NCBI GenBank assembly: GCA_000004695.1
Contig: CM000155.2
Span: 896,001-960,000, forward strand
From: Dictyostelium discoideum
Lineage: Eukaryota
Reading direction: 5' to 3'
Length of the DNA: 64,000 bases
Within the stretch, counting starts at the first letter, position 1. Each line of letters starts with the position of its first letter. The notes below the pieces were generated by a model, which saw nothing but the letters and a program-made list of their open reading frames with translations, was not told the origin of the DNA and did not search any database. Position numbers and translations under genes: made by a program. Positions 32,154-46,592 of the stretch are shown piece by piece.

Positions 32154-34902
32154 CAATTTAGGATCAGTCGGCTATAATTCATTTTCAAATATTACATTTT
32201 TATATGATAATATTAATATGACAAGGGATCAAGATTTTTATAATATTGCATATTTAGAAAATGATGAAATTCCACGTGATTTACCATTTTCATTAATTTC
32301 TTTAGATCCAGTAACTTATTCTTATTTAACTTCAGTTAGATTAATTAATAATATTATGTACCCATTCACTTTTGATCCAACCATTAATAAATTCACAAGT
32401 AAATTTGTTATTCCAGCAAATACTGCATTCGATAAGATTTCATTTGCAATTATTGGTGGTTTATCAACAGAATTTTATTATTCAGGTTTTACAATTAATA
32501 ATTCACCAGCTTTCGATAATGAAGGTCCATTATTTAGTGAATTCTACAAAGTAAATGAAAATACTACTTATTCCTCTTTAGGTTATCCAAAAACTTCTGG
32601 TTGGAGATTTAGAATCACTGATAAATACAATGGTTTCAGAAATGGTTTTATTAAAGCTATGGGTTCAGTTGATAGTACAATTATTAAATTAAACTTCACT
32701 GTCCACGATAGACTTAATGGTGATAAACACGATGGTTTATATGAACTTTTACTCGCTTTAGTACCAGAACAATGTATCACACAACAATATACTATCACTC
32801 ACGTTGAACTTTATGATGACAATAACATTAGTTCAATTTTCAAACTTTATTCACCAGATTATTACTTAAAGAATCCATTCATTAATATTTATGCTCAAGG
32901 TTTAGAAGTTACTACAATCTCTACATTCTGTAGTGAACCAATTATTGACGTTTTACCAACTCTTTCCCAATTCAGAGTTTACAATCAATCTGTTGATGTT
33001 GGTTCTGGTAATAGAAGAGTTTCATTTAGTTTTGAAGCATCATCAGATAGTGGTATGAAAAGATCACAAGCACCAATTATTTATCTCACAACAAATTTAT
33101 TTGAAATCGTTGAATGTGAAACAAAATTTATTATGATTACACCAATATCCAATCTTTACTCTTGTTCAGTTGATCTTCCATTCTCATTTGGTTATCCAGG
33201 TAAATTATTTTTGTCAGTTTATGGTTTAATCAATAATGGTGGTAAATATGGTGGTGCTAGTACAAAGGATTTACGTGATCTCGGTTTCCAATATTCTATT
33301 GATACTCAATTCACAAATTATACTCCAGTTATTACTCAAAATGATAATATTTTATCCGTTCATTCAGATTTAGTATTCTTTGGTTATGGTTTCAATAAAG
33401 TTGTTGATGTAATTGTTAGATATAAAAATCAAGAACCAGTTCATATTGCACCAACTCAAATCTTTGGTTCAACTGCAATTAAACTTCAAATTACTCCAAC
33501 TGAATATCAATTTACTATTCAAGTTGTAAATAGTGAAGGTATTTATTCAAATGAATATAAAATTAATCCAATAATTTGGAGATATCAATTTAATCCAACT
33601 GAAACACCAACTGAAACTCCAACTGAAACTCCAACTCAAACACCAACTCAAACACCAACTGAAACTCCAACCCAAACTCCAACTGAAACTCCAACTGAAA
33701 CTCCAACTGAAACTCCAACTGAAACTCCAACTGAAACTCCAACTGAAACTCCAACTGAAACTCCAACTGAAACTCCAACTCAAACTCCAACTGAAACTCC
33801 AACTGAAACTCCAACTCAAACTCCAACTGAAACTCCAACCCAAACCCCAACACAAACACCAACACCAACACCAAACCCAGGTAATTGTAATGTTAGTGTT
33901 ACCCTAAAGGTTACTTCTCAATGGGTTGAAAATAATCAAAACTTTATACAAGTTGAGGCAACTATTTTCAATTATGGTCAATCAGAAATCACTGGTTTTT
34001 CATTCCAATTATTTAATATTATCAGTATTTGGAATGTTGATCAAACATCATTCAATAGCTACAGTCTTCCAATTTGGTTACCAGCCATTCAAGTTGGTTC
34101 ATCATTCAGTTTTGGTTATATTCAAAAAACTGATACTGTTGTCCCACTCTCCTCCCAATCAGTTGTATGTCAAGAAATTCCAACCCCATCCCCAACTCCA
34201 TCACCATCCCCATGTATGATTAATGTTTCTCAAAGTATCGTTAATTCATGGAGAGAAAATACTCAAGACTTTATTCAAGTTGAAGTAAACCTTAAAAACA
34301 TTGGTCAAAATACCGTTTACCAATTCTCATTCGAAATATTTGATCTTGTTAACATTTGGGGCGTTGAATTATTATCAAATAATACTTATCAACTCCCAAG
34401 TTGGGTATATAGTATCCCAGTTGGTTCATCTCACAATTTTGGTTATATCCAAAAATCAAACCATCTTTTACCAATTTATTCACAATTACCAACTTGTCAA
34501 GTAACTCCAACTCCAACACCAACTCAAACTCCAACTCAAACTCCAACTGAAACCCCAACTCCAACCGAAACTCCAACCGAAACTCCAACTCAAACTCCAA
34601 CTCAAACACCAACTCAATCACCAATTCCAAGACCAATAACTTGTTCAAAACTTGATGATGTTCTTAATTTCAATAGCACAGAAACTATTTACTGTAAAGG
34701 TAGAGGTCCAACCTACTGTATTGATGGCTATGGTTCAGAATGTGAAACCAACGATGTTGATGGAAGAATTAAATGTACAACAAAGAGCAATTTCATGAGC
34801 TGTAAGGGTGATCATTTAGTTTGTAAATCAAACTATCTTACATGTAAAGTCAATATTTCTGAAGGTACACCATTCCATGTTCACGATTCTTCTTTACAAT
34901 AA
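30086..34902 (+). CDS. Large secreted glycoprotein with two tandem CBM49-like carbohydrate (cellulose)-binding modules, Pro-Thr (PTETPTQT)n linkers and a C-terminal Cys-rich tail. Six exons: 30086..30482, 30565..30840, 30950..31282, 31362..31643, 31746..32054, 32162..34902
   Basis: Signal peptide MNKLYFSIYFIILSILVTLSNG. Five introns (GTAAGT or GTATGT donors, TAG acceptors) are all phase 1, and each internal exon is a multiple of 3 nt. The two ~95-aa modules are C.V...V.SW.EN.Q.FIQVE....N.GQ......F......IW.V........Y.LP.W......G.S..FGYI.K and match the CBM49 pattern (..SW...GQ.YYQ.EV.I.N.......L..........WG.......Y.FPSW...L..G.S..F.YI). (ACT-CCA/ACA-CCA) repeats encode mucin-like PT linkers at 33590..33870 and 34500..34620. 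Confidence 0.55.
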
Positions 34903-35228
34903 AATATTTTAAATAACCTATCAAAGAAATAAATAAATTTTAAAATTTCTTTTTTAAATTATCTCTTTCCAAATAATTTTTTTTTTTTTCTTTCTTTACT
35001 AATTTTATTTATTTATTTTTAAAATAATATAATAATAAAAAAAAAGTTTTTAAGAAACTACAACACTAACCAAGCTTATATTTAAATTCTTTAAGTTTAA
35101 TTGAATGAATATCATTACAATTTATTACAATTTTAATTTTTCTTTTTCTTTTTCTCTAAAAAAAAAAAAAAAAAAATAATATTATTTAAAATATTATTTT
35201 TTTTTATATATTTATATATGTTTAAATA

Positions 35229-36154
35229 TTAATTTTGAATAAAGGATTCAACCATAGCCAAAGCAGCGACAGGTGCTTCTCTTGGTGCCATATGAGATGC
35301 TCCAAGAAGAACTTGCATTGTAAGATTATCATATGATTGTGAATAACCAGAAATTGTATTACCATTAATATATAAAATTTTTCTTGGTGAGTTATTAAAT
35401 TCTTGATTGTATTTCCATTTAAGTTGAGAAGTCCATTCAGTACTACCTAAGAAATTACAAATCCAATCATAGTTTCTATTTTATTTAATTTTTATTTTTT
35501 TTTTTTTAGGAAATGTTGTATATTAGTATTTATAAATACTAATTTTTAATGATGATGAATTTGTATATAGGTGGTGTAATAAATAAAATAAAATAAAATA
35601 AATAAAAAAACATACCCATTATAAACTAAAACTTTATAATTTTCTAATAAAGTTGGAATATAATTAATTGGTGTATTAAACCAATCTCTAATGATAGCAC
35701 TATATGGTTGAGTACTACAAACATTCCAAGTAGAATTTGGTAAAACTCCAAATGATTGTTTGGTTGATGCTAAATTAAGGTAATCAATGATAGCTGTAAA
35801 GTTATAACAAAGTGGTTCATTTGGATAACATGTCTTTGATACATCATATACATTGAAATTACCTGCATACTCTTGAACGATATCCATAATGTTATTACAA
35901 ATTTGAGTGGTCATATTATAATCACCTGAATCTATTGCTTGTTGACATGATTCATATAATCCTTCAGTTTCCTTTAATGCATTAATATCAAGCATACCAT
36001 GTGCATATGCAAATGGTCCAAGTGATCCATATTGAATGTATGGGTCAACCATACCATTACCAATTGCAAGACCTTTAAGATTAATTGTTGCTAATCCTAA
36101 ATTCTTTTGATAAATATAATATGAAAAACTTGGTACATAATGACCCTATAAAAA

Positions 36155-36190
<36 letters not shown>

Positions 36191-36834
36191 TAGTGTTAAA
36201 TATACTATTTATGTATTATTTTCACTATATATAGTGGCGGTAGTGGTGATGGTGGTAAATAAATAACTTACTGCATATGATTCACCAAAAATATATAATG
36301 GTAATTTAGAATATTTTGGATATTTTGAAAGGAATTGAGTTAAGAATGAATATAAATTTTCAGAAATCTCTGTTTCTGTAGTACTATAACCATCACTATC
36401 AACAACATAACTGAAACCGGCACCTAATGGAGAATCTACATATAAAACATTTGCAACCATATTCCATGAATTTGGATTTTCTGATAAAGTTAAATTATCA
36501 TTTACAAAATATGGTCCATTTTCATAAACTATTAAAAAAAAAAAAAAAAAAAATATAAAAAAAAAAGAATTTATTAGTATATGCACGTGTAACTTTACAA
36601 TAAAAAAAAACACTTACAAGCTGCCATTAAAGATGAACAACCTGGACCACCTGTAAGCCAAAGAATTAATGGATCAGTTGATGGAGAATTTTGTGATTCA
36701 TAAAATAAATAAAACAAATTTGCATTTGTTGTTTCATTAACATTGAAATAACCACTTAATTGTAAAGTTGGTGTACTATTTGATACATTTATTACAAAAA
36801 TTATTGAAATAATAATAAATAATAATTTCATCAT
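35229..36834 (-). CDS. Serine carboxypeptidase (peptidase S10). Four exons: 36834..36618, 36528..36272, 36145..35616, 35475..35229
   Basis: The spliced product reads [20 protein letters not shown]...[17 protein letters not shown]|[12 protein letters not shown]...[15 protein letters not shown]...[10 protein letters not shown]|[15 protein letters not shown]...LVYNG|[20 protein letters not shown]...[26 protein letters not shown]. All S10 hallmarks are present: GGPGCSS, the GESYAG catalytic-Ser motif, DWICN and the catalytic His in GASHM. Donors GTAAGT at 36617, GTAAGT at 36271 and GTATGT at 35615. Acceptors TAG at 36531..36529, 36148..36146 and 35478..35476. Confidence 0.75.
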
Positions 36835-36899
36835 TTTTGTTCGTTTCTTTGTTGAATGTTTGGATTAAAAAAATGAAAATTCCGTTTTTTTGTTTTATT

Positions 36900-36943
<44 letters not shown>

Positions 36944-37441
36944 TGCTATTCCAATTTTATTTTTATTTTTATTTTTATTTTGAAAAATAAAATGAATTTT
37001 CATTTGCATTTTTTTTTTTTTTCTTTATTCTTTTATACTTTTTTTATCTTTAATTTTCTTTGCTAATTAGCAAACCCAGTTTCGTTTTTATAATAAGAAT
37101 TATTAAAAAAAAAAAAAAAAAAAAAATAAGAATAATAAAAAAAAAAAAAAAATAAAAATAAAAATAATAAAATAAAAAAAAAAAGAAAATTGATGAAACC
37201 ATTCTGTTTTTTTTTTTTTTTTTTTTTTTAAGATTTAAATATTATAAAAAATAATAAGAAATTATTATAAAAAAGTTAATAAATATTTAATTTAAGTTTA
37301 TTATATACTTTTTTTTTTTTTGCACAAGAAGAAAAAAAAGAAGGGAGTGTCACTAAAAAAATGTTAAAAAATTAATTTAGATAAAAATAACAATTATTTT
37401 TATTGAAAAATTTTTTATTTTATTATTAAAAATTTAATAAA

Positions 37442-37902
37442 CTATTTTTTTAATTGTTTTTTTGGAAGGTCTATGTACAAAGTTCCATAAATATTCTAAA
37501 AATAAAAAGTGTAAGTTTTTTTTTATTTTTTTATTTTTTTTATTTTTTTAAATAATAGAGATTATTTACATATATATCTTGTAAAAGAGAAATAGTAATG
37601 GCACTAATATTATTCATATCATTAAAAAAATTATTTGGATTATCTTGATATTGCAAAATAGTTTGGAAAATTGTTGTTAAAATGTGAGTGATATTTCTTG
37701 ACATTGTACCATGCTTTTCTCCATCAGGTTTTAAATGGGAAATAATAAATTTTATAATTATTGCAATTACATGAATTATAGATTTCCATTCATCATTAAC
37801 ATTAGAATGAAGAATAGTTTTAATAATAATTATTCCTATATTCTCCCATACTTCAATTCCATCCATTTTTTTTTTTTTTTTTAAAAAAAATTTAACCAAC
37901 AA
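37442..37902 (-). CDS. Small hypothetical protein, possibly 2 exons: 37902..37570 (or starting at MDG 37866), 37495..37442
   Basis: ORF MDGIEVWENIGIIIIKTILHSNVNDEWKSIIHVIAIIIKF...SLLQDIY, then a GTAAAT donor at 37569. Acceptor TAG at 37498..37496 precedes NIYGTLYIDLPKKQLKK*. No confident homology. Confidence 0.3.
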
Positions 37903-38203
37903 ATAAAAAAAATAAAAAATAAAAAAATAAAATATAAAAGGTTTATTTATTTATTTATTTATTTATAAATTAAATTACAATTTTATTTTTTCTTTAATTT
38001 TTTAATTATTAAAATCGATGGTAATTTTTTTTTTATTTTTAAATAAATCACACCCACTTCAAAGTTTATTTTTAATTTAAGTTTTCAAAAGGGGGGGGGG
38101 GGGTTAAAGAATATATTTTAAAATTAAAATTTAGATAAAAAACATAAAATGTATTATTGTAGTGGTTTATATACTTTATTTTTTATTATTATTTTTATTT
38201 TGA

Positions 38204-38718
38204 TTATCTTATTAATTGATAATGAACACGTTTTGGTTTTGAACAATATTTTTTGTATAAATATAATGATATTGAACCAATTATTAATAAAATGAAAATT
38301 GATACAATTATTACAATTGGGATTGTCCAATTCATATGGTTATTATTATTGTTATTATTATTATTTGAAGTATTATTAATAATAATTGTTGTTGTTGTAT
38401 TTGGTGAGGTTGAACCATTAATTAATAAACAATAAGGATTGATAGTATTATCAATTAGAATATAACCATTATCACAATAGCATATATACAATCGATCATT
38501 TACCATTGAATTTGAATCTAAACTCCAATCAGAAAAAAATGAATAATTACAATTTGCACTTCCACAAACTTTTTCTGCAATTGTTCCAAAACATTGATCA
38601 ATGTTACAACTTTTACCACTTGATGATAATTTAAAACCACTTTCACAAAAACAATTATTAAATACTTGATTTGTATAATTACATTTTGCGGTACCACACT
38701 CACTACAAATTTCATTTC
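38204..38718 (-). CDS. EGF-like single-pass membrane protein, paralog A (3' exon only; the 5' exons could not be found and may be degenerate)
   Basis: Frame open from acceptor ccaaaag|GA at 38720/38718 to TAA at 38204. It encodes NEICSECGTAKCNYTNQVFNNCFCESGFKLSSSGKSCNIDQCFGTIAEKVCGSANC...YICYCDNGYILIDNTINPYCL (EGF-like C.C..GY spacing), then an N-rich stalk, a TM (TIPIVIIVSIFILLIIGSISLYLY) and a short basic tail. It is homologous to the last exon of paralog B and enters in the same phase (1). Confidence 0.4.
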
Positions 38719-38725
38719 CTTTTGG

Positions 38726-38763
<38 letters not shown>

Positions 38764-38768
38764 ACCCC

Positions 38769-38809
<41 letters not shown>

Positions 38810-39132
38810 TTTTATCCTTCCCTAGATTATTGTTAATTAAAATAAATAAAATTATGATATAGTATATTATCATCTTTATAAAATCCATGAATAAAAGAAA
38901 AAAAAAAATTAAAAATTAAAAAAAAAAAAAAAAAGTAAAAAAAATAAAAAAAAAAAAAATTAAAAATATTAATAATAAAAATTGTTTAAAAAGGTGTCAA
39001 TTAAATTATTTATTTATTTTTTTTTGAAAAAACACTAAATAAATTATTTTTTTATTTTTTTTTTATTTTTTTTTATTATAGAATTATAATTCCAATATTT
39101 TTTTATTTTATATATTTATTTATTTATTTTAT

Positions 39133-40330
39133 TTATAACAATGGTTGAGAATCTAATGAATTATCATCTTCATCATAATAATAATTATTATTATTTGTTT
39201 TTGTTGTAATTGTTTTAGATTTTTTATATTTAAAAAATTTAACATAAATAAACATTGAGATACAAAATATAAATAAAAGACCAATTACTGAAACCATGAT
39301 TGAGACTGGTATTTTCCATTTTGAAGAATCTGGATTATCTACACAACTTACATCACCATTATCTGAAATGAATAAATGAGTTTTTTCATTTAAACAAACA
39401 CAATTATCATCTTGACCATCATTTTTGCAATCAGCTGAACCACACATTGTAGAATTTGCACATTCACCTTCTTTTTGACAGTATTTAATAATTTCATTAT
39501 CAATTTTTTTATTTTGTAAAGTGAAACCTTCATCACAATAACAATAATAAAGTATGTTATAATCAATTCCATTCTCTATAAAGTGATTTGTAGTTAAATT
39601 ACATTTTGCATAACCACAATCTATTTGAAAATTTTTAATATAACATGTATCAATTTCACATTGCGTACCATTGAATTTATAACCTTCTTTACAAGTACAA
39701 TTATAACCTTTTACTATATTATCAGTATTTTCACATTCTCCATTCCCACCACATACATTTAAATAACAATAATCTTTATCTATTTAAAAATAAATATAAA
39801 ATAAAATAAAATAAGTTTTTAAAATAAAATAATAAAATAATAATTAAATAATTTAATAATAAAAATACTTACATTGACATAAGGTACCATAAAAACCCAA
39901 TGGACATATATCACTACCATAATCCCATGTAAAAACATTAATTGAACCATTCAAACAATTAAATGATGTTGTTGCTGAAGTATGATTTAATTGTATTGAA
40001 GTTGAATTGAAGATTGTGGTTGTTGTGATTAAATTTGGTGAATTATTTAGTGAACAAGTGAAAATATTTAAAAAATGATTTTCATTTGTAAATGATAAAA
40101 TCATTGAATTAAATTCAATTGAATTTTCACCACAATTACCAATTTGATAGAATTGAATTGAATTATCTTGTTTTAATTTACATGAACCCAATGTTAAACT
40201 TTTTTTGAAAATTTTTTGATATCCCCATGATAAAGTAATCCAATCAATTGGGCATGGGGAATATATTTTTGAGTTTCCATAAATTTGATTATATTCATAA
40301 AAATTTTTATTTTTATTTAAACCCTTTTGG

Positions 40331-40368
<38 letters not shown>

Positions 40369-40568
40369 TTGTCAACAAAAAAAAAAAAAAAAATTAAAAA
40401 AAAGTAATAATAAAAAAAGTAATAATTAATATTTACCAATCCACTACCAAAATAAATATTACCTTTGTGACAAATATTTGATAATGAATAATATTCATTT
40501 GGGCATGAATATTCTATTGCAGTTGCATAATTAAAAATAATTAAAACTATTAAAATAAATAACTTCAT
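39133..40568 (-). CDS. EGF-like single-pass membrane protein, paralog B. Three exons: 40568..40437, 40323..39873, 39779..39133
   Basis: Exon 1 is a signal peptide MKLFILIVLIIFNYATA + IEYSCPNEYYSLSNICHKGNIYFGSGL, ending at a GTAAAT donor at 40436. Exon 2 follows (T)n-CCAAAAG|GGT (acceptor at 40325..40324) and encodes KIYSPCPIDW...GSCKLKQDNSIQFYQIGNCGEN...FTWDYGSDICPLGFYGTLCQ. GTAAGT donor at 39872 (phase 1). Exon 3 follows TAG at 39782..39780 and encodes repeated EGF-like units (CGGNGECENTDNIVKGYNCTCKEGYKFNGTQCEIDTC...YYCYCDEGFTLQN...), a TM (IPVSIMVSVIGLLFIFCISMFIYV) and the tail KFFKYKKSK...DSQPLL. Confidence 0.55.
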
Positions 40569-40888
40569 TTTTTTTTTTGAAGAAATAATAATAATAATAA
40601 TAATAATTTACAAAAAAAAAACAATAAAATAAGAAAAAAATTAACTAAAAAAAAAAAAAAAAAAATAAGAAAAAAAAATACAAAAATGGCCAAAAACGAA
40701 TAAAAATAAAATATATCAAAAATATAAAAAAAAAAAAAATTTAAAGATATCTAAATAAAAATATAATATGAAATAAATAAAAAAATAAAAATAAAAACTA
40801 CTACCTATCTAAATGAATATTTAATTTAAATATTTCTTTTTTTTTTATTTTTTATTTTTTTTTTATTTTTTTTTTTTCCTATTTTTAT

Positions 40889-41463
40889 TTATTGTACAAC
40901 TACATAAATTTTAGTTCCAATTGCTGTGACTATAAATGTTTGTTCTGAAAATGAAACTATATAAATAGGAATTGTTTGTTGTTGTTGTTGTTGTTGTTAT
41001 TGTTATAATTAGTAAAATTGAACTCCTATTGGTATATATATAACGACTAAAAATAATACTAAATAAACAATTGAATGAAAATAATAATAATAATAAATAC
41101 CTGTCATTCTTTTAAATTCTTGATTATTTGAAGATGTAATTTTATTGACGTCGTGTAACATTGAAATAATGGTGCTTGCAAATTCTTTATTATTATAGAA
41201 ACTTTCTTGTAAAATACCTGAAGCCTATATTATTATCACAATCATCATTATCATGATTTATTATGAATATTATAATTTAAAACATATAAGAATATGTCCC
41301 GATAAATGAAATTAAGTTAGTAGAAAAAAAAAAAAAAAAAAAAAAAACCCCTAAATATAAGAAAGTTGTGTGTGTAGGATATTATACTTACACTTGAAAT
41401 TGATCCATCTTGTTCAATAGTTAATGAACCTTTAAAATCTTTTAAAATATCTGGTGCGCTCAT
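40889..41463 (-). CDS. lamtor4: Ragulator complex protein LAMTOR4 homolog (roadblock fold). Three small exons: 41463..41392, 41224..41101, 40956..40889. Absent from the ORF track
   Basis: Spliced product (87 aa): MSAPDILKDFKGSLTIEQDGSISS|ASGILQESFYNNKEFASTIISMLHDVNKITSSNNQEFKRMT|GVSFSEQTFIVTAIGTKIYVVVQ. It aligns with human LAMTOR4 ([43 protein letters not shown]...[28 protein letters not shown]). Donor GTAAGT at 41391, acceptor TAG at 41227..41225. Donor GTATTT at 41100 (phase 1), acceptor TAG at 40959..40957. Confidence 0.55.
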
Positions 41464-41559
41464 TGTATTTATATATATATTATGTTGGAAATGTTATTTT
41501 GATTTTAATTTATTTGTTTTTTTTTTTTTTTATGAAAGTTCGATTGAAAAAAAAAAAAA

Positions 41560-41591
<32 letters not shown>

Positions 41592-41758
41592 TTTATTTTT
41601 ATTTTTATTTTTTTTATTTTTTATATTTTTTATTTTTTATTTCACATATTGTGTAACCAAAAAAAAAACAAAATAAAAATAAGAAAAATAAAAAAGAAAT
41701 AAACAAATAAATTTTAAACTTTTGCACTTTTATTTATTTTTTTTTTTTTTTTTTCTAA

Positions 41759-42000
41759 TTAATTGAATTGAATTTTTAATTTATCATCAAAAAGATTATC
41801 ATTATTTGATATTGATTTGAAATTATAATTTAATAAAGAAATGATATTTAAAATTTGTTGATTTTTAATATTTGAAATTATTAATGGTTGAAGATTTAAA
41901 TTAAATTTTTTAATTTGATTTGTATTTTCCATTTTAGTAATTAAATTTGAAATTTCTATATTATATAATTTCAATGAATCAATAAATAAAATTTTATTAC

Positions 42001-42072
<72 letters not shown>

Positions 42073-44485
42073 TATTATAATTATTAATTTTTAATTTTGA
42101 AAACCATAAATTATCTCTATCATGATAATAGTTTTTACTAATATTATCATCTTCACTTAATTTAATTATTGAATAAAAAATTAAATTAATTAAAAGATGA
42201 TGTTTTATTTCTTGAGAATAATTTTCATTTAATAAAATTAAATTCATATAAAATAAATCTCTAAATTTACAAGAATTGTAAATTATATTTAATATATTAT
42301 CACAAACCCATTTTGAATCATTTTCAATAACATAACATAATTTTTTAGAAATTTGATAAGGCGAACCAAATTCATTAAAAAATTCTTTTGAATTGAAATT
42401 AACCACACTTGAAGGTTTTAAATTACATTCTAAAAATAAATAATTTAATATACTTTCTTTAATATTATAAAAATTATTTAATAATTTAGAAATATTATAA
42501 TTTTGTTCTATTAAAATTGATGATACTGATGATACTGATGATATTGATGATGGCACTGATGATGATACTGATGATGATGTTGGTTTAAAAAATAATTTTA
42601 TAAAATTTAAATCATCAATATAAAAATAATATCTAGATTCTAAATTTTTTAAAATTAAATAATGATAAATTAATGGATTATTAATTAAAAATACTTGACT
42701 AATTACATGTGAACCAATAAGACTAGGTTGTAAATCACTATAGTTTAAAGGTTTACCACCACTACTTATAATACTATCAATTATTGTTTTAAAAATTATA
42801 AAACCTTGATAACCTTCATTTTTTAAATTTGGAATATATCTTATTAAATTTCTAAGTTGGAATGCCGATGGCCATAATGATTTAAAATTACTAAGTATAT
42901 AATTAAATATTAATAAATTTGAAGTGTTAACAGAGGTTTCTAAAATTGTTATTAACAAATTTGAATTTTTAAATAATGAAATTGATTTTTCAATAAATAA
43001 ATGCAAAGATTTTAAATCATTAAAAAATAAATCCAAATATTTATAAGTACCAGTATTCATTGAAAAATTTGTAAATTGAATAGTTTTATAATTTTCAAAA
43101 TTATTAAAAAGGAATTCAACAATTGATAATTTTGAATCGAAATGAATTGGTTTTAAAGAAACTTTATCATTTAATGTTGGTTCATTTGAAATGAAATCTA
43201 ATACAAATTTCAAATAATTACAATCAAATAATTTCTTTGTAATATTAAAAAATATTAAATCCCAATTTAATTTATGAAATTCAATTTTATTATTATTTTC
43301 AATTAAAAATTTAAATTCTTGAAATGTTGGTGAATAATTAAATCTTAATAATGAAATTATAATATTATCATTATTATAATTTATTAAATTAAAATTAAAA
43401 TTAATAATTTCTAAATTACTATTAATTATTAAACGACTGATATCTTTAGTATTGTTAACGGAAGTACTACTTGTTAAATGGAAACCATTAATTCTAAATT
43501 GATTTTGTGATGAATTTGAATTTTTCCAAAAATAATTTAAAATTTGGAAATCCAAAAACTTTGTATTTTGTTGTTTAATGTAAGGTAATGGATAATTTCC
43601 ATTGAATTGTTTTGATAGGTAATCAGATTTTAAAATGATTTTAGCCAATTCAAGATTAGAGTGAATGAAAGAAATACCAATTAAAAGACAACTTAAATTA
43701 TCTACAATTTTATCATAGGGTGCTGTGAATGGTAGTTGAAATTTAACTAAATGAATTTCGAGATCAATTAAATAATTTACTAAATAATTTAAATAAACCA
43801 AGTTATTACTTTTTAATGATTTAATTAAAACTTCAATCGCTTGAACAAATGTGAGTTCAAAATTGTGATATTTAATTTCATTTTTGAAAATTTCTAAATT
43901 ATTATCACAATCGATTGAAGTTTTATAACCATCTTTATTAATCATTGGATCGCCACCCCATCTATAAAATTTTGAATATTTTATTGGTTCTCTAAATTCA
44001 TAAATTTTTTCATTCATTAAGAATTTATAAATTTCTAAATTACCACTTTTTGCTGAACTTTTTAAAACAAATTTTTTAAATATTTGAAATTGAAATTTTG
44101 AATTATTATAAACTTTTAAAAATCTATTAAATCCTAATTCTTTATAAGATAATAGTGCTTTAAAATCTTTTTTATCATTAAATTGGAACATTGATACAAA
44201 TTTCCAATACTTTTCTCTATTAAATATTACAACATTATAATAAAATTCGAATAAATAATCAAATAATTTAAATAATTTTTTTGATAATAATTCTTTAATT
44301 GAAAAATCATATGATCTTTTTAATTCTTTTTTAATTTCATAAATTTTATAAAATTCATTTTCATTATTATCATCATCATCATCTAAATATTCAAATCTAA
44401 CAAATTTAAATATTTTATTTGAAATTACAATATTATTAAAAACTTTTTTATATAATATATAATTATTATTATTGTTATTATTCAT
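41759..44485 (-). CDS. Large N/I/K-rich hypothetical protein (Dictyostelium-type low complexity; no recognised domain)
   Basis: Continuous 908-aa ORF from ATG 44485. It contains poly-N coded by (ATT)n at 42000..42070 and S/V-rich repeats (SSVSSSVPSSISSVSSVSS). The family was not recognised. Confidence 0.45.
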
Positions 44486-44720
44486 TTTATTTATAATGTT
44501 TAAAATAAAAAAAATAAAAAAATAAAAAAATTTGATAAAAATCTATTTGAGTGAAAAAAAAAAAAAAAAAAAAAAAAATCTAAAAAAAAAAAAATAAGAA
44601 ATAAATAAGAAAAAAAAAAAAAAGATAAAACAATTATCTTCTATAAATTTTTTAATTTTATTTAATTTTATTTTATTATTTTTTTTTTATTATTATTATT
44701 ATTTATTATTATTATTATTA

Positions 44721-45593
44721 TTAAGTTCTATAATGAGAATTTGCTTTAACATAATCAACTGTTAAATCACAAGTCCACATAGTATAATTTTGATTACCAT
44801 TATTTAAATCAACAATTATACTAATATCTTTATTTGATAATAATTTGGCAGCTTTTTCATCATCTTTTGGAGTTGGTTGACCATCTTTAAGGAATTGCAT
44901 TGCAATGAGAGGATCATTCTTTTGACCGATACCAATATTATCACCATAACCAGATGCGAACCACATTGAAATATTTGAAGGTACAACACCATCAGCACCA
45001 CTATAACCAACAGCGGCTAAAACTCTACCCCAATTTGCATCTTCACCATACATTGCTGTCTTTACCAATGAAGAGGTTGCAATTGAATTTGCAATGATTT
45101 TACCATCCTTTTCGGTTTTAGCACCTCTAACTACCACACTGATGAACTTGGTTGCACCTTCAGCATCTCTGACGATCATTTGAGCCAATTCAGTTGCACA
45201 TTCTCTCATTGCTTTCTCTAATAATAAATACTCTTTGGAATTGGTTGAATCAATTCTCTTGTTACCTGCCAAACCATTTGAAAATACTGCAACCGTATCA
45301 TTGGTACTCATATCACCATCAACATTAATACTATTGAATGAATAATCAATTGAATGTTTTAATGCACTCTTTAATGCTTCCTCACTAATATCTGCATCTG
45401 TACAAAGTGTACATAACATTGTTGCCATATTTGGATGAATCATACCTGCTCCTTTGCAAATACCTGTAATATTAACTTGTTTACCTTGAATTTCAATTTG
45501 TTTTTGAACTAATTTTGGTACTTTATCTGTTGTCATAATTGCTTTTGCTGCCTTTGAAAAAAAAATAAAAAAAAATAAAAAAAATTATTAATA

Positions 45594-45646
<53 letters not shown>

Positions 45647-46210
45647 AATTAAATACATACTGATAACCAATCATCTTTTAAATTTTCAGATGCTTTTGTA
45701 ATACCAAGTTCAACTTTTTTCATATCTAATTGTTGACCAATAATACCAGTTGACTTTAATAATAAAAATAAAAGTTAATAATTAATTTATAAATTTTAAA
45801 TATATATAAATATTTACTTACCATTACTAATGATTGTTGTTTTGCATTTACCAATTTTGAAGATAAAAAAGACATTGTTTGAGCATTTTTTTCACCTTCT
45901 GGACCTGTACAAGCATTAGCACCACCACTATTTATAATTAAAGATTGGAAACCAGTGTTTTTATGTTTCTCTATTAATGACTTGCTTAATAAAACTGGTG
46001 CTGCTTTAACTTTATTCTCTGTAAATACTGCTGCAACATTACATTCTTTCTCTGAATGAATTAAACAAATATCTAATGCTCCACTCTTTTTTAATCCGCA
46101 TGCATATGTACCAGTTTTAAATCCTTTTGGTGATGTTGTTGTCTTTTTTTATTTTTTTTTTTTTTTTATTTTTTTTTTTTTTTAATCCCAAATAAAAAAA
46201 AATAAAAAAA

Positions 46211-46241
<31 letters not shown>

Positions 46242-46478
46242 ATTTTTATTTTATTATTGTTATTATTTTTGATAATAAATAAGTTTTATTATTATTTTTA
46301 TTATATATTTTAAAATAAAATTTACAAAATAATTTTTTGAAATAAAATAAATAAAATAAAATAAAATAAAAATAAATGATTTTCAACAATTTACATTTTT
46401 TATAGTACTATAATGTCTTAAAAAAGAAGTAGTTGTTGAGTTTTGAAATAATTTTTTATTAACTATATTTGAAAACAT
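44721..46478 (-). CDS. argJ: Arginine biosynthesis bifunctional protein ArgJ (glutamate N-acetyltransferase / ornithine acetyltransferase), mitochondrial. Four exons: 46478..46395, 46142..45822, 45753..45661, 45551..44721
   Basis: Exon 1 is a presequence-like MFSNIVNKKLFQNSTTTSFLRHYSTIKN, with a GTAAAT donor at 46394. Exon 2 encodes TTTSPKGFKTGTYACGLKKSGALDICLIHSEKECNVAAVFTENKVKAAPV...GANACTGPEG...SLVM, with a GTAAGT donor at 45821. Exon 3 encodes STGVIGQQLDMKKVELGITKASENLKDDWLS, with a GTATGT donor at 45660. Exon 4 encodes AAKAIMTTDKVPK...GMIHPNMATMLCTLCTDA (the ATML autoproteolytic site) ...ISVVVRGAKTE... Acceptors AAG at 46145..46143, AAG at 45756..45754 and AAG at 45554..45552. Intron 3 contains a (TA)22 repeat. 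Confidence 0.75.
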
Positions 46479-46592
46479 GTTTTTTTTTTTTTTTTTTTTT
46501 ATATTATATTATTGTTTTTATTTTTTTTTTTTTTTTATTTTTTTTTTTTTTTTTTATATGAAAACTTGAAGTTATGTGTATTGAATTAATAA

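Follow-up and report, generated by a model that had tools for sequence, protein, structure and literature searches.

Why does one of two adjacent genes for membrane proteins with epidermal growth factor (EGF)-like modules appear to have lost its 5' exons in the reference genome of Dictyostelium discoideum? The two genes lie head to tail on the minus strand of the window, by which we mean the whole 64,000-nucleotide (nt) stretch of contig CM000155.2 (assembly GCA_000004695.1, positions 896,001 to 960,000) that was analyzed; all coordinates below are window positions. We refer to DDB_G0291932 as gene A and to its upstream neighbor DDB_G0291946 as gene B. The original prediction, made from the letters of the window, described a tandem pair of paralogs and offered three readings of gene A: a decaying duplicate, a gene with a noncanonical first exon, or a copy affected by homopolymer length errors. 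Our analysis makes it very probable that the puzzling anomaly in gene A is a local base-call artifact of the AX4 reference and that A and B are an ordinary tandem pair, each transcribed on its own and each coding for a type I membrane protein with an EGF-like ectodomain.

Structure of gene A in the window and in related genomes

Gene A was compared in eight genomes, these being the window and seven other assemblies with an orthologous locus: ACTFIT (D. discoideum; L001), ACTFIR and ACTFIW (both labelled D. discoideum; L002 and L003), two D. cf. discoideum genomes (L004, which is ACTFIY, and L005), D. dimigraforme (L006), and D. citrinum (L007). In the window the 3' exon of gene A (exon 2, 38204..38718, minus strand) encodes two EGF-like six-cysteine modules, an Asn/Thr-rich stalk, a transmembrane (TM) segment, and a basic tail ending in YQLIR before the stop codon. 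It is entered in phase 1 after T35-CCAAAAG, just as the original prediction had read it, through an acceptor (CCAAAAG/GA) whose AG lies at 38720-38719. That phase matches the end of a 52-nt exon (exon 1, 38822..38873, minus strand), which starts at an ATG at 38873, encodes the signal-peptide-like MIIYYIIILFILINNNL, opens a Gly codon with its last base, and so ends in phase 1 at 38822. This second ATG had been missed, and another at 38888 had been taken for the only candidate. Between the two exons lies an intron of 103 nt in the window (38719..38821, minus strand) that contains a T37 run (38770..38806) and a T35 run (38726..38760), both of which rank among the eight longest homopolymers of the window. 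On the plus strand these are the A37 and A35 runs that had been correctly reported to flank minus-strand GGGGGTAAA, an inter-run patch at 38761..38769 that reads TGGTGTTAA in L001 when the same nine positions are compared ungapped. Because the T runs are intronic, their length is irrelevant to the product of gene A.

The predicted product has 188 amino acids (aa), with the 17-codon exon from the ATG at 38873 followed, across the phase-1 intron, by the exon for the EGF-like modules and TM segment. When the window bases are spliced from 38822 to 38718, the resulting protein is identical to ACTFIT_009698 (P0007, KAM9944961.1), a 188-aa hypothetical protein annotated at the same locus with the same neighbors, and both exons are open in the window, with neither a frameshift nor a stop. 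The two genomes differ at the donor, which is GTAAGT in ACTFIT and GGAAGG in the window. The dinucleotide at 38821-38820 is GG in the window alone and GT in all seven other genomes, where the donor reads GTAAGT, GTAACT, GTAAAT, or GTACAT; the window GG is probably an erroneous reading. From the ATG at 38873 as far as the acceptor of gene A there is a single GT, at 38765 within the inter-run patch, and this GT is probably an artifact as well. The AX4 model is truncated because the reference offers no usable donor: Q54DY5 (P0008, 'Putative uncharacterized transmembrane protein', 100 aa) represents the same gene but corresponds to the C-terminal 100 residues (38506..38204), without the signal peptide and both EGF-like modules.

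The two-exon structure recurs throughout the comparison. Exon 1 is 52 nt long in all seven other genomes, starts from an ATG matching 38873, and ends at a canonical GT donor, which disposes of the proposed noncanonical first exon. Next comes a T-rich intron in phase 1, 66-106 nt long and closed by AG, and then the exon for the EGF-like modules and TM segment. The open reading frame is intact in six of the seven (182-193 aa), with a premature stop in L004, and NCBI models of 186-189 aa exist in three D. discoideum strains (P0007, P0010, P0011). The ratio of nonsynonymous to synonymous substitution rates (dN/dS) is 0.10-0.34 in all informative pairs, and the cytoplasmic tail is nearly invariant across orthologs. 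The shared two-exon structure and the dN/dS values thus mark gene A as conserved and constrained; on this comparison of sequences it is an ordinary two-exon gene, neither decaying nor noncanonical. Gene A does lack an equivalent of the middle exon of gene B, as had been observed, but no 5' exon has been lost, since a counterpart of that exon is absent from gene A in all eight genomes compared.

A conserved box, TTGACACCTTTTTAA (38986..39000, minus strand; also written TTGACAYMTNTTTAA), is found 111-153 nt upstream of the ATG of gene A in all eight genomes, within an intergenic stretch of A/T runs that is otherwise fast-evolving. Its position and conservation make it a candidate promoter element of gene A's own. 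A scan for promoters and terminators with bacterial models, which are irrelevant to a eukaryote, gave nothing above shuffled controls.

Two further features of the gene A locus were recorded. In the D. cf. discoideum strain ACTFIY (L004:4800-4900), gene A carries an in-frame TAG after NEICG, with AGTGAG changed to GGTTAG; the NCBI model P0012 skips the TAG by using a downstream acceptor, which deprives the first EGF-like module of its initial Cys residues. Gene A of this strain may be a strain-specific pseudogene or may be alternatively spliced. About 100 nt downstream of the gene A stop in the window is a plus-strand G13 run (C13 on the minus strand, 38091..38103), in a region of ~21% G+C, and L001 has a long C run too. 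The G+C content measured for the region of the two genes is ~21.5%.

Base substitutions beside long homopolymer runs

Global alignment of window positions 46580..33116 (~13.4 kb) with L001 gave 99.58% identity and 25 substitutions. Twenty-four of these fall within 224 nt, in three patches beside the T36, T37/T35, and T17 runs, and the exception, at 42865, is the one substitution outside the homopolymer patches. On the minus strand, the patch in gene B just 3' of T36 (40330..40188) holds 15 substitutions, the patch flanking T37/T35 (38820..38765) holds seven as placed by the aligner or eight when compared ungapped, and the patch after T17 holds two (38910 and 38886). In all 22 of the clustered substitutions that were tabulated, the window base is a copy of the adjacent L001 base; the direction of copying is constant within a patch, and the base replaced is usually T. 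Ungapped comparison of the inter-run patch by eye adds three more substitutions that obey the same rule. In patches read away from a T run, it is the following minus-strand base that is copied, and in the patch on the other side of T37 it is the preceding one. Under random substitution the chance of this neighbor rule would be (1/3)^25, or about 1e-12, and the clustering is far less likely still.

The consequences for gene A are concentrated at its donor and at the supposed start. Over 38808..38821 (minus strand) the window reads GGAAGGATAAAAGG and L001 reads GTAAGTATATATGT, with five replacements of T by a neighboring base, at 38820, 38816, 38812, 38810, and 38808. The original prediction placed its only candidate signal-peptide exon at the ATG at 38888; a reading frame does open there and enter the T run, but the ATG (38886..38888, minus strand) is spurious, being TTG in L001-L005, and its G at 38886 in the window is a copy of the base that follows.

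In gene B the patch alters both a splice signal and the coding sequence. The acceptor of intron 1 is TCTATAG/TGT in L001 and in short-read contigs versus CCAAAAG/GGT in the window, so the near-identical (T)n-CCAAAAG acceptor that had been taken as common to A and B exists in the reference only. Seven codons are altered over 40188..40330 (C45G, D50N, I53F, N65K, N84K, N85K, and C91G), and two of the affected residues are cysteines conserved in all orthologs. At nearly all sites of the gene B patch, the L001 state is also that of the outgroups L002-L007. Logan contigs assembled from short reads of at least four SRA runs (SRR26869268, SRR26869266, SRR28564540, and SRR28564541) cover gene B from inside the T36 run, and the three that reach the patch (L008-L010) match L001, not the reference, at 15 of 15 sites. 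At a further site, 39746, these contigs have a base found in neither L001 nor the window, and they therefore represent an independent sample.

Structure of gene B

Gene B consists of three exons on the minus strand that together encode 409 aa. Exon 1 (40437..40568, 132 nt) ends in phase 0 at a GTAAAT donor conserved across species; intron 1 (40324..40436) holds the T36 run (40331..40366); exon 2 (39873..40323, 451 nt) encodes an N-terminal Cys-containing domain without a Pfam match; and exon 3 (39133..39779) specifies three EGF-like modules and a TM segment, after which the tail closes with DSQPLL and the stop. The protein thus runs from a putative signal peptide through an N-terminal domain of ~180 aa to the EGF-like modules, TM segment, and tail. 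Three exons had been proposed earlier, and the 451-nt middle exon (40323..39873) and the phase-1 last intron are as described; the proposed exon-1 donor at 40463 was rejected, as it leads to an immediate stop, and is replaced by the phase-0 GTAAAT donor after 40437. The three-exon translation is 98% identical to D. discoideum ACTFIT_009697, and the B orthologs are modeled at 409-418 aa and have Cys both at position 45 and at position 91.

The AX4 model of gene B (Q54DY4, P0009, 'EGF-like domain-containing protein', 432 aa) reads past the conserved GTAAAT donor at 40436 to 40368, making the T36 run the intron, whereas the orthologous annotations use the donor at 40437. It gains in this way 23 intron-encoded residues (VNINYYFF...VDK; 40368..40436, minus strand), and it also carries the seven reference-private residues of the patch. 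The exons of this model (40568..40368, 40323..39873, and 39779..39133) translate from the window to the exact 432-aa protein. As some of the matched residues occur in no other strain, the window corresponds to the AX4 reference.

Origin of the substitutions

Base-call artifacts following homopolymers occur in shotgun assemblies made with dye terminators (Sanger sequencing), where the classic expectation is an error in run length. The substitutions described here resemble such artifacts in that they set in right beside runs of 17-37 nt, die out over ~150 nt, and copy an adjacent base, as would be produced by a superimposed signal that is shifted. They differ in that the damage is by substitution instead of run-length error, in a comparison of assembled sequences. 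Of the three readings in the original prediction, homopolymer error comes closest, as the errors do adjoin the runs, but they are not errors of length.

The simplest cause would be out-of-register signal after polymerase slippage through the homopolymer, by which bases would be replaced by copies of their neighbors. Miscalls of this kind would turn the gene A donor from GTAAGT into GGAAGG, invent the false ATG at 38888, rewrite the acceptor of gene B intron 1, and change the seven codons of gene B. If so, the true AX4 sequence would read GTAAGTATATATGTA at 38821..38807 and GGTGTTAA between the two runs. We infer that the differences are sequencing errors rather than mutations of AX4.

Several points weigh against this interpretation. 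The probable artifact was recognized from assembled sequences and short-read contigs of strains other than AX4 or near-identical to it. L001 is the sole near-identical comparator for the patches of gene A, as no Logan contig spans them, and the strains behind ACTFIT and the SRA runs were identified by deduction. The 38822/38718 splice of gene A is predicted from genomes. At the level of the proteins, the Pfam EGF matches of A and B all fall below gathering thresholds, and signal peptides and sorting motifs were judged by eye.

Alternative explanations

It could be that the differences are real mutations private to AX4, gene A being freshly dead through loss of its donor and gene B carrying seven true amino-acid changes. 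The reference sequence does read so, and misalignment ('dislocation') mutagenesis at repeats can also yield neighbor-copy substitutions. PMC7466956 reports a high rate of slippage in repeats for D. discoideum, and it gives a very low base-substitution rate, 2.47e-11 per site per generation, which makes it implausible that NC4-derived lines came to differ by 24 real mutations within 224 nt. These 24 substitutions stand against one in ~13 kb elsewhere, and the copying rule reverses its direction from one side of the homopolymer to the other, as reads leaving the run would lead one to expect. The independent read sets, from near-identical strains, have none of the 15 changes in gene B. In addition, two conserved cysteines and two splice signals were struck with no other sign of decay. 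On this balance real mutation is unlikely. The more specific form, in which transient misalignment ('dislocation') during replication or repair of the 35-37-nt T runs triggered mutation in AX4 alone, is quite unlikely too; were such a localized mutational process at work, the laboratory strain would have lost the splice donor of gene A and would carry two altered conserved cysteines in gene B. Gene conversion, from gene A or elsewhere, was rejected as the source of the gene B patch: the window contains no donor beyond low-complexity matches of ≤18 nt.

A very unlikely alternative makes the gene A exon an alternative 3'-terminal exon of gene B, within a single gene. Two automated annotations, P0005 of D. 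dimigraforme and P0006 of D. citrinum, do join the 5' part of gene B to the gene A exon. In both species, however, gene B keeps an intact TM segment, a conserved tail, and a stop codon, and gene A retains its ATG exon with a GT donor. The fusion would splice out of the middle of the TM segment of gene B, and five other annotations call two genes. The fused NCBI models, of 545 aa in D. dimigraforme (L006:3001-5356) and 495 aa in D. citrinum (L007:3001-5351), are merger artifacts.

We give scarcely any credence to gene A as a pseudogene, that is, a decaying duplicate of gene B with lost 5' exons. The AX4 annotation of only a 100-aa reading frame and the in-frame TAG of the cryptic-species strain L004 would fit such decay. 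The coding sequence of gene A is nonetheless 100% identical to that of the annotated 188-aa protein of a sister strain, and the intact reading frames in six of the seven other genomes, the constant 52-nt first exon, the dN/dS values, the conserved upstream box, and the nearly invariant tail all argue against it. Equally remote is a literal reading of the window, with exon 1 running through T37 as polyphenylalanine and a splice that uses the GT at 38765 and the AG at 38699. The frame stays open across such a junction, with a 67-nt intron, but its GT is missing from L001, which has GGTGTTAA, run lengths and surroundings vary in every other genome and all of these have a canonical donor upstream of the run, and the EGF module of the product would be short of its first two Cys. 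A base-call artifact in the reference of two ordinary genes is thus the explanation that we retain.

Relation of genes A and B and features of their proteins

The prediction that A and B form a tandem pair of paralogous EGF-like membrane protein genes was upheld by similarity searches (tblastn, E=5e-14; BLASTP, E=1e-11, 29% identity over 184 aa). Homology is confined to the last exon of gene B, and the two six-cysteine modules of A align to the first two of the three in B. Each gene has a phase-1 intron placed three codons ahead of the first Cys of an EGF module; from this shared phase and position, the intron of A is the positional homolog of the last intron of B, not of intron 1. The architecture of the two proteins had been called the same. 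Both are indeed predicted to be EGF-like type I membrane proteins, but B has an extra N-terminal domain of ~180 aa and a third EGF-like module, and the cytoplasmic tails differ.

The EGF-like modules were identified in the translations by the C-x-C-x2-G-[FY] six-cysteine pattern, which occurs twice in A and three times in the last exon of B, and their Cys columns are conserved across orthologs. Neither protein reaches a Pfam gathering threshold: B scores 24.8 bits on EGF_3 (PF12947; cut-off 28.5) and A scores 21.7 bits on cEGF (PF12662; cut-off 26.6). The record of the L002 ortholog lists a weak precomputed EGF_3 match. An exhaustive phmmer search with B over 1.84 billion representatives returned 10 matches in total, in which EGF-rich proteins match B residues ~160-385 with E values of 1e-9 to 8e-4. 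The N-terminal domain of B recurs only in P0018 (ACTFIU_005708; 1384 aa, D. citrinum; E=8e-8) and P0015 (small secreted; 210 aa, D. citrinum and D. dimigraforme; E=2e-11), the remaining matches being generic EGF matches. P0018 resembles B in being a type I protein with EGF modules and a TM segment; it differs in having 14 calcium-binding EGF domains (EGF_CA) and one TIG domain, and gene A is without the N-terminal domain entirely. The domain encoded by exon 2 of gene B (39873..40323) is thus a clade-restricted, undescribed extracellular domain without a Pfam family, present in this search in two other protein clusters only, both from D. citrinum and D. dimigraforme. Relatives of A and B were detected only in D. 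discoideum, D. cf. discoideum, D. citrinum, and D. dimigraforme.

Putative signal peptides of A and B, read by eye, are the hydrophobic stretches MIIYYIIILFILINNNLG and MKLFILIVLIIFNYATA at their N-termini. The TM segment of A is IPIVIIVSIFILLIIGSISLYLY, followed by KKYCSKPKR, and is conserved in orthologs, as is the TM segment of B. An AlphaFold2 model of B, built from a 5-sequence alignment, was set aside as unusable (mean predicted local distance difference test score (pLDDT) 36, predicted template modeling score (pTM) 0.21); it places a helix at residues 353-378, within its stretch of highest pLDDT.

YxxPhi and [DE]xxxL[LI] are sorting signal motifs for adaptor-protein (AP) complexes. The tail of A (38204..38251, minus strand) ends in HYQLIR, which fits YxxPhi, and that of B (39133..39170, minus strand) ends in NSLDSQPLL, which fits [DE]xxxL[LI]; both are invariant or nearly so across species. 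These conserved tails suggest, with modest confidence, that A and B are surface adhesion or receptor-like proteins that may cycle through AP-dependent endocytic/lysosomal sorting. Searches by gene or UniProt identifiers found no literature on either gene.

Genomes used for comparison

The identity of ACTFIT bears on how its few differences from AX4 are read. According to PMC12745789, the project PRJNA1300491 comprises ten Nanopore-plus-Illumina Dictyostelium genomes, among them the laboratory strain AX2-214, and the wild isolates CR116C, OT3A, M4B, and S6B are 'genetically diverged from AX4'. L001 differs from the window at a single site outside the patches, and L002-L005 are only ~79-92% identical to L001 across the aligned parts of the locus; ACTFIT is therefore likely to be AX2-214. 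The substitution at 42865 (G in the window, T in L001, minus strand) lies in an upstream 908-aa gene without a Pfam match and may be a genuine single-nucleotide polymorphism between laboratory lines. Run lengths differ by 1-8 nt between the window and L001 at homopolymers at 36942, 44578, 46541, 41347, and 38761, and either assembly may be the one in error, because Nanopore-based run lengths are unreliable too.

ACTFIR and ACTFIW, both labelled D. discoideum, are only about 87-92% identical to AX4 over the aligned blocks, which take in the flanking genes as well, and L004 and L005 are mostly 79-93% identical. The synonymous divergence (dS) of gene A is ~0.13 for ACTFIR and ACTFIW, far above the species-wide D. 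discoideum diversity of ~0.3% (10.1101/2025.10.22.684067). Hyperpolymorphism specific to the A/B locus was rejected, as divergence in L002-L005 is just as great in the flanking genes. The Nanopore assemblies of that bioRxiv study are different ones, and no link between them and the present loci could be made.

Implications for the gene models

The value of these results is mainly curational, a probable artifact having corrupted two AX4 gene models. DDB_G0291932 (Q54DY5) should be a 188-aa protein with a signal peptide, EGF-like modules, and a TM segment, not a 100-aa fragment. DDB_G0291946 (Q54DY4) should be 409 aa long, without the 23 intron-encoded residues and with seven residues corrected, two of them cysteines. 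The error signature may also matter for other genes, in that short neighbor-copy patches beside long homopolymers can destroy a splice site, produce a false start codon, and make an intact gene look like a pseudogene. As to the genes themselves, the paralogs do form a tandem pair, which databases already contain, and it belongs to an unremarkable family of EGF-like surface proteins.

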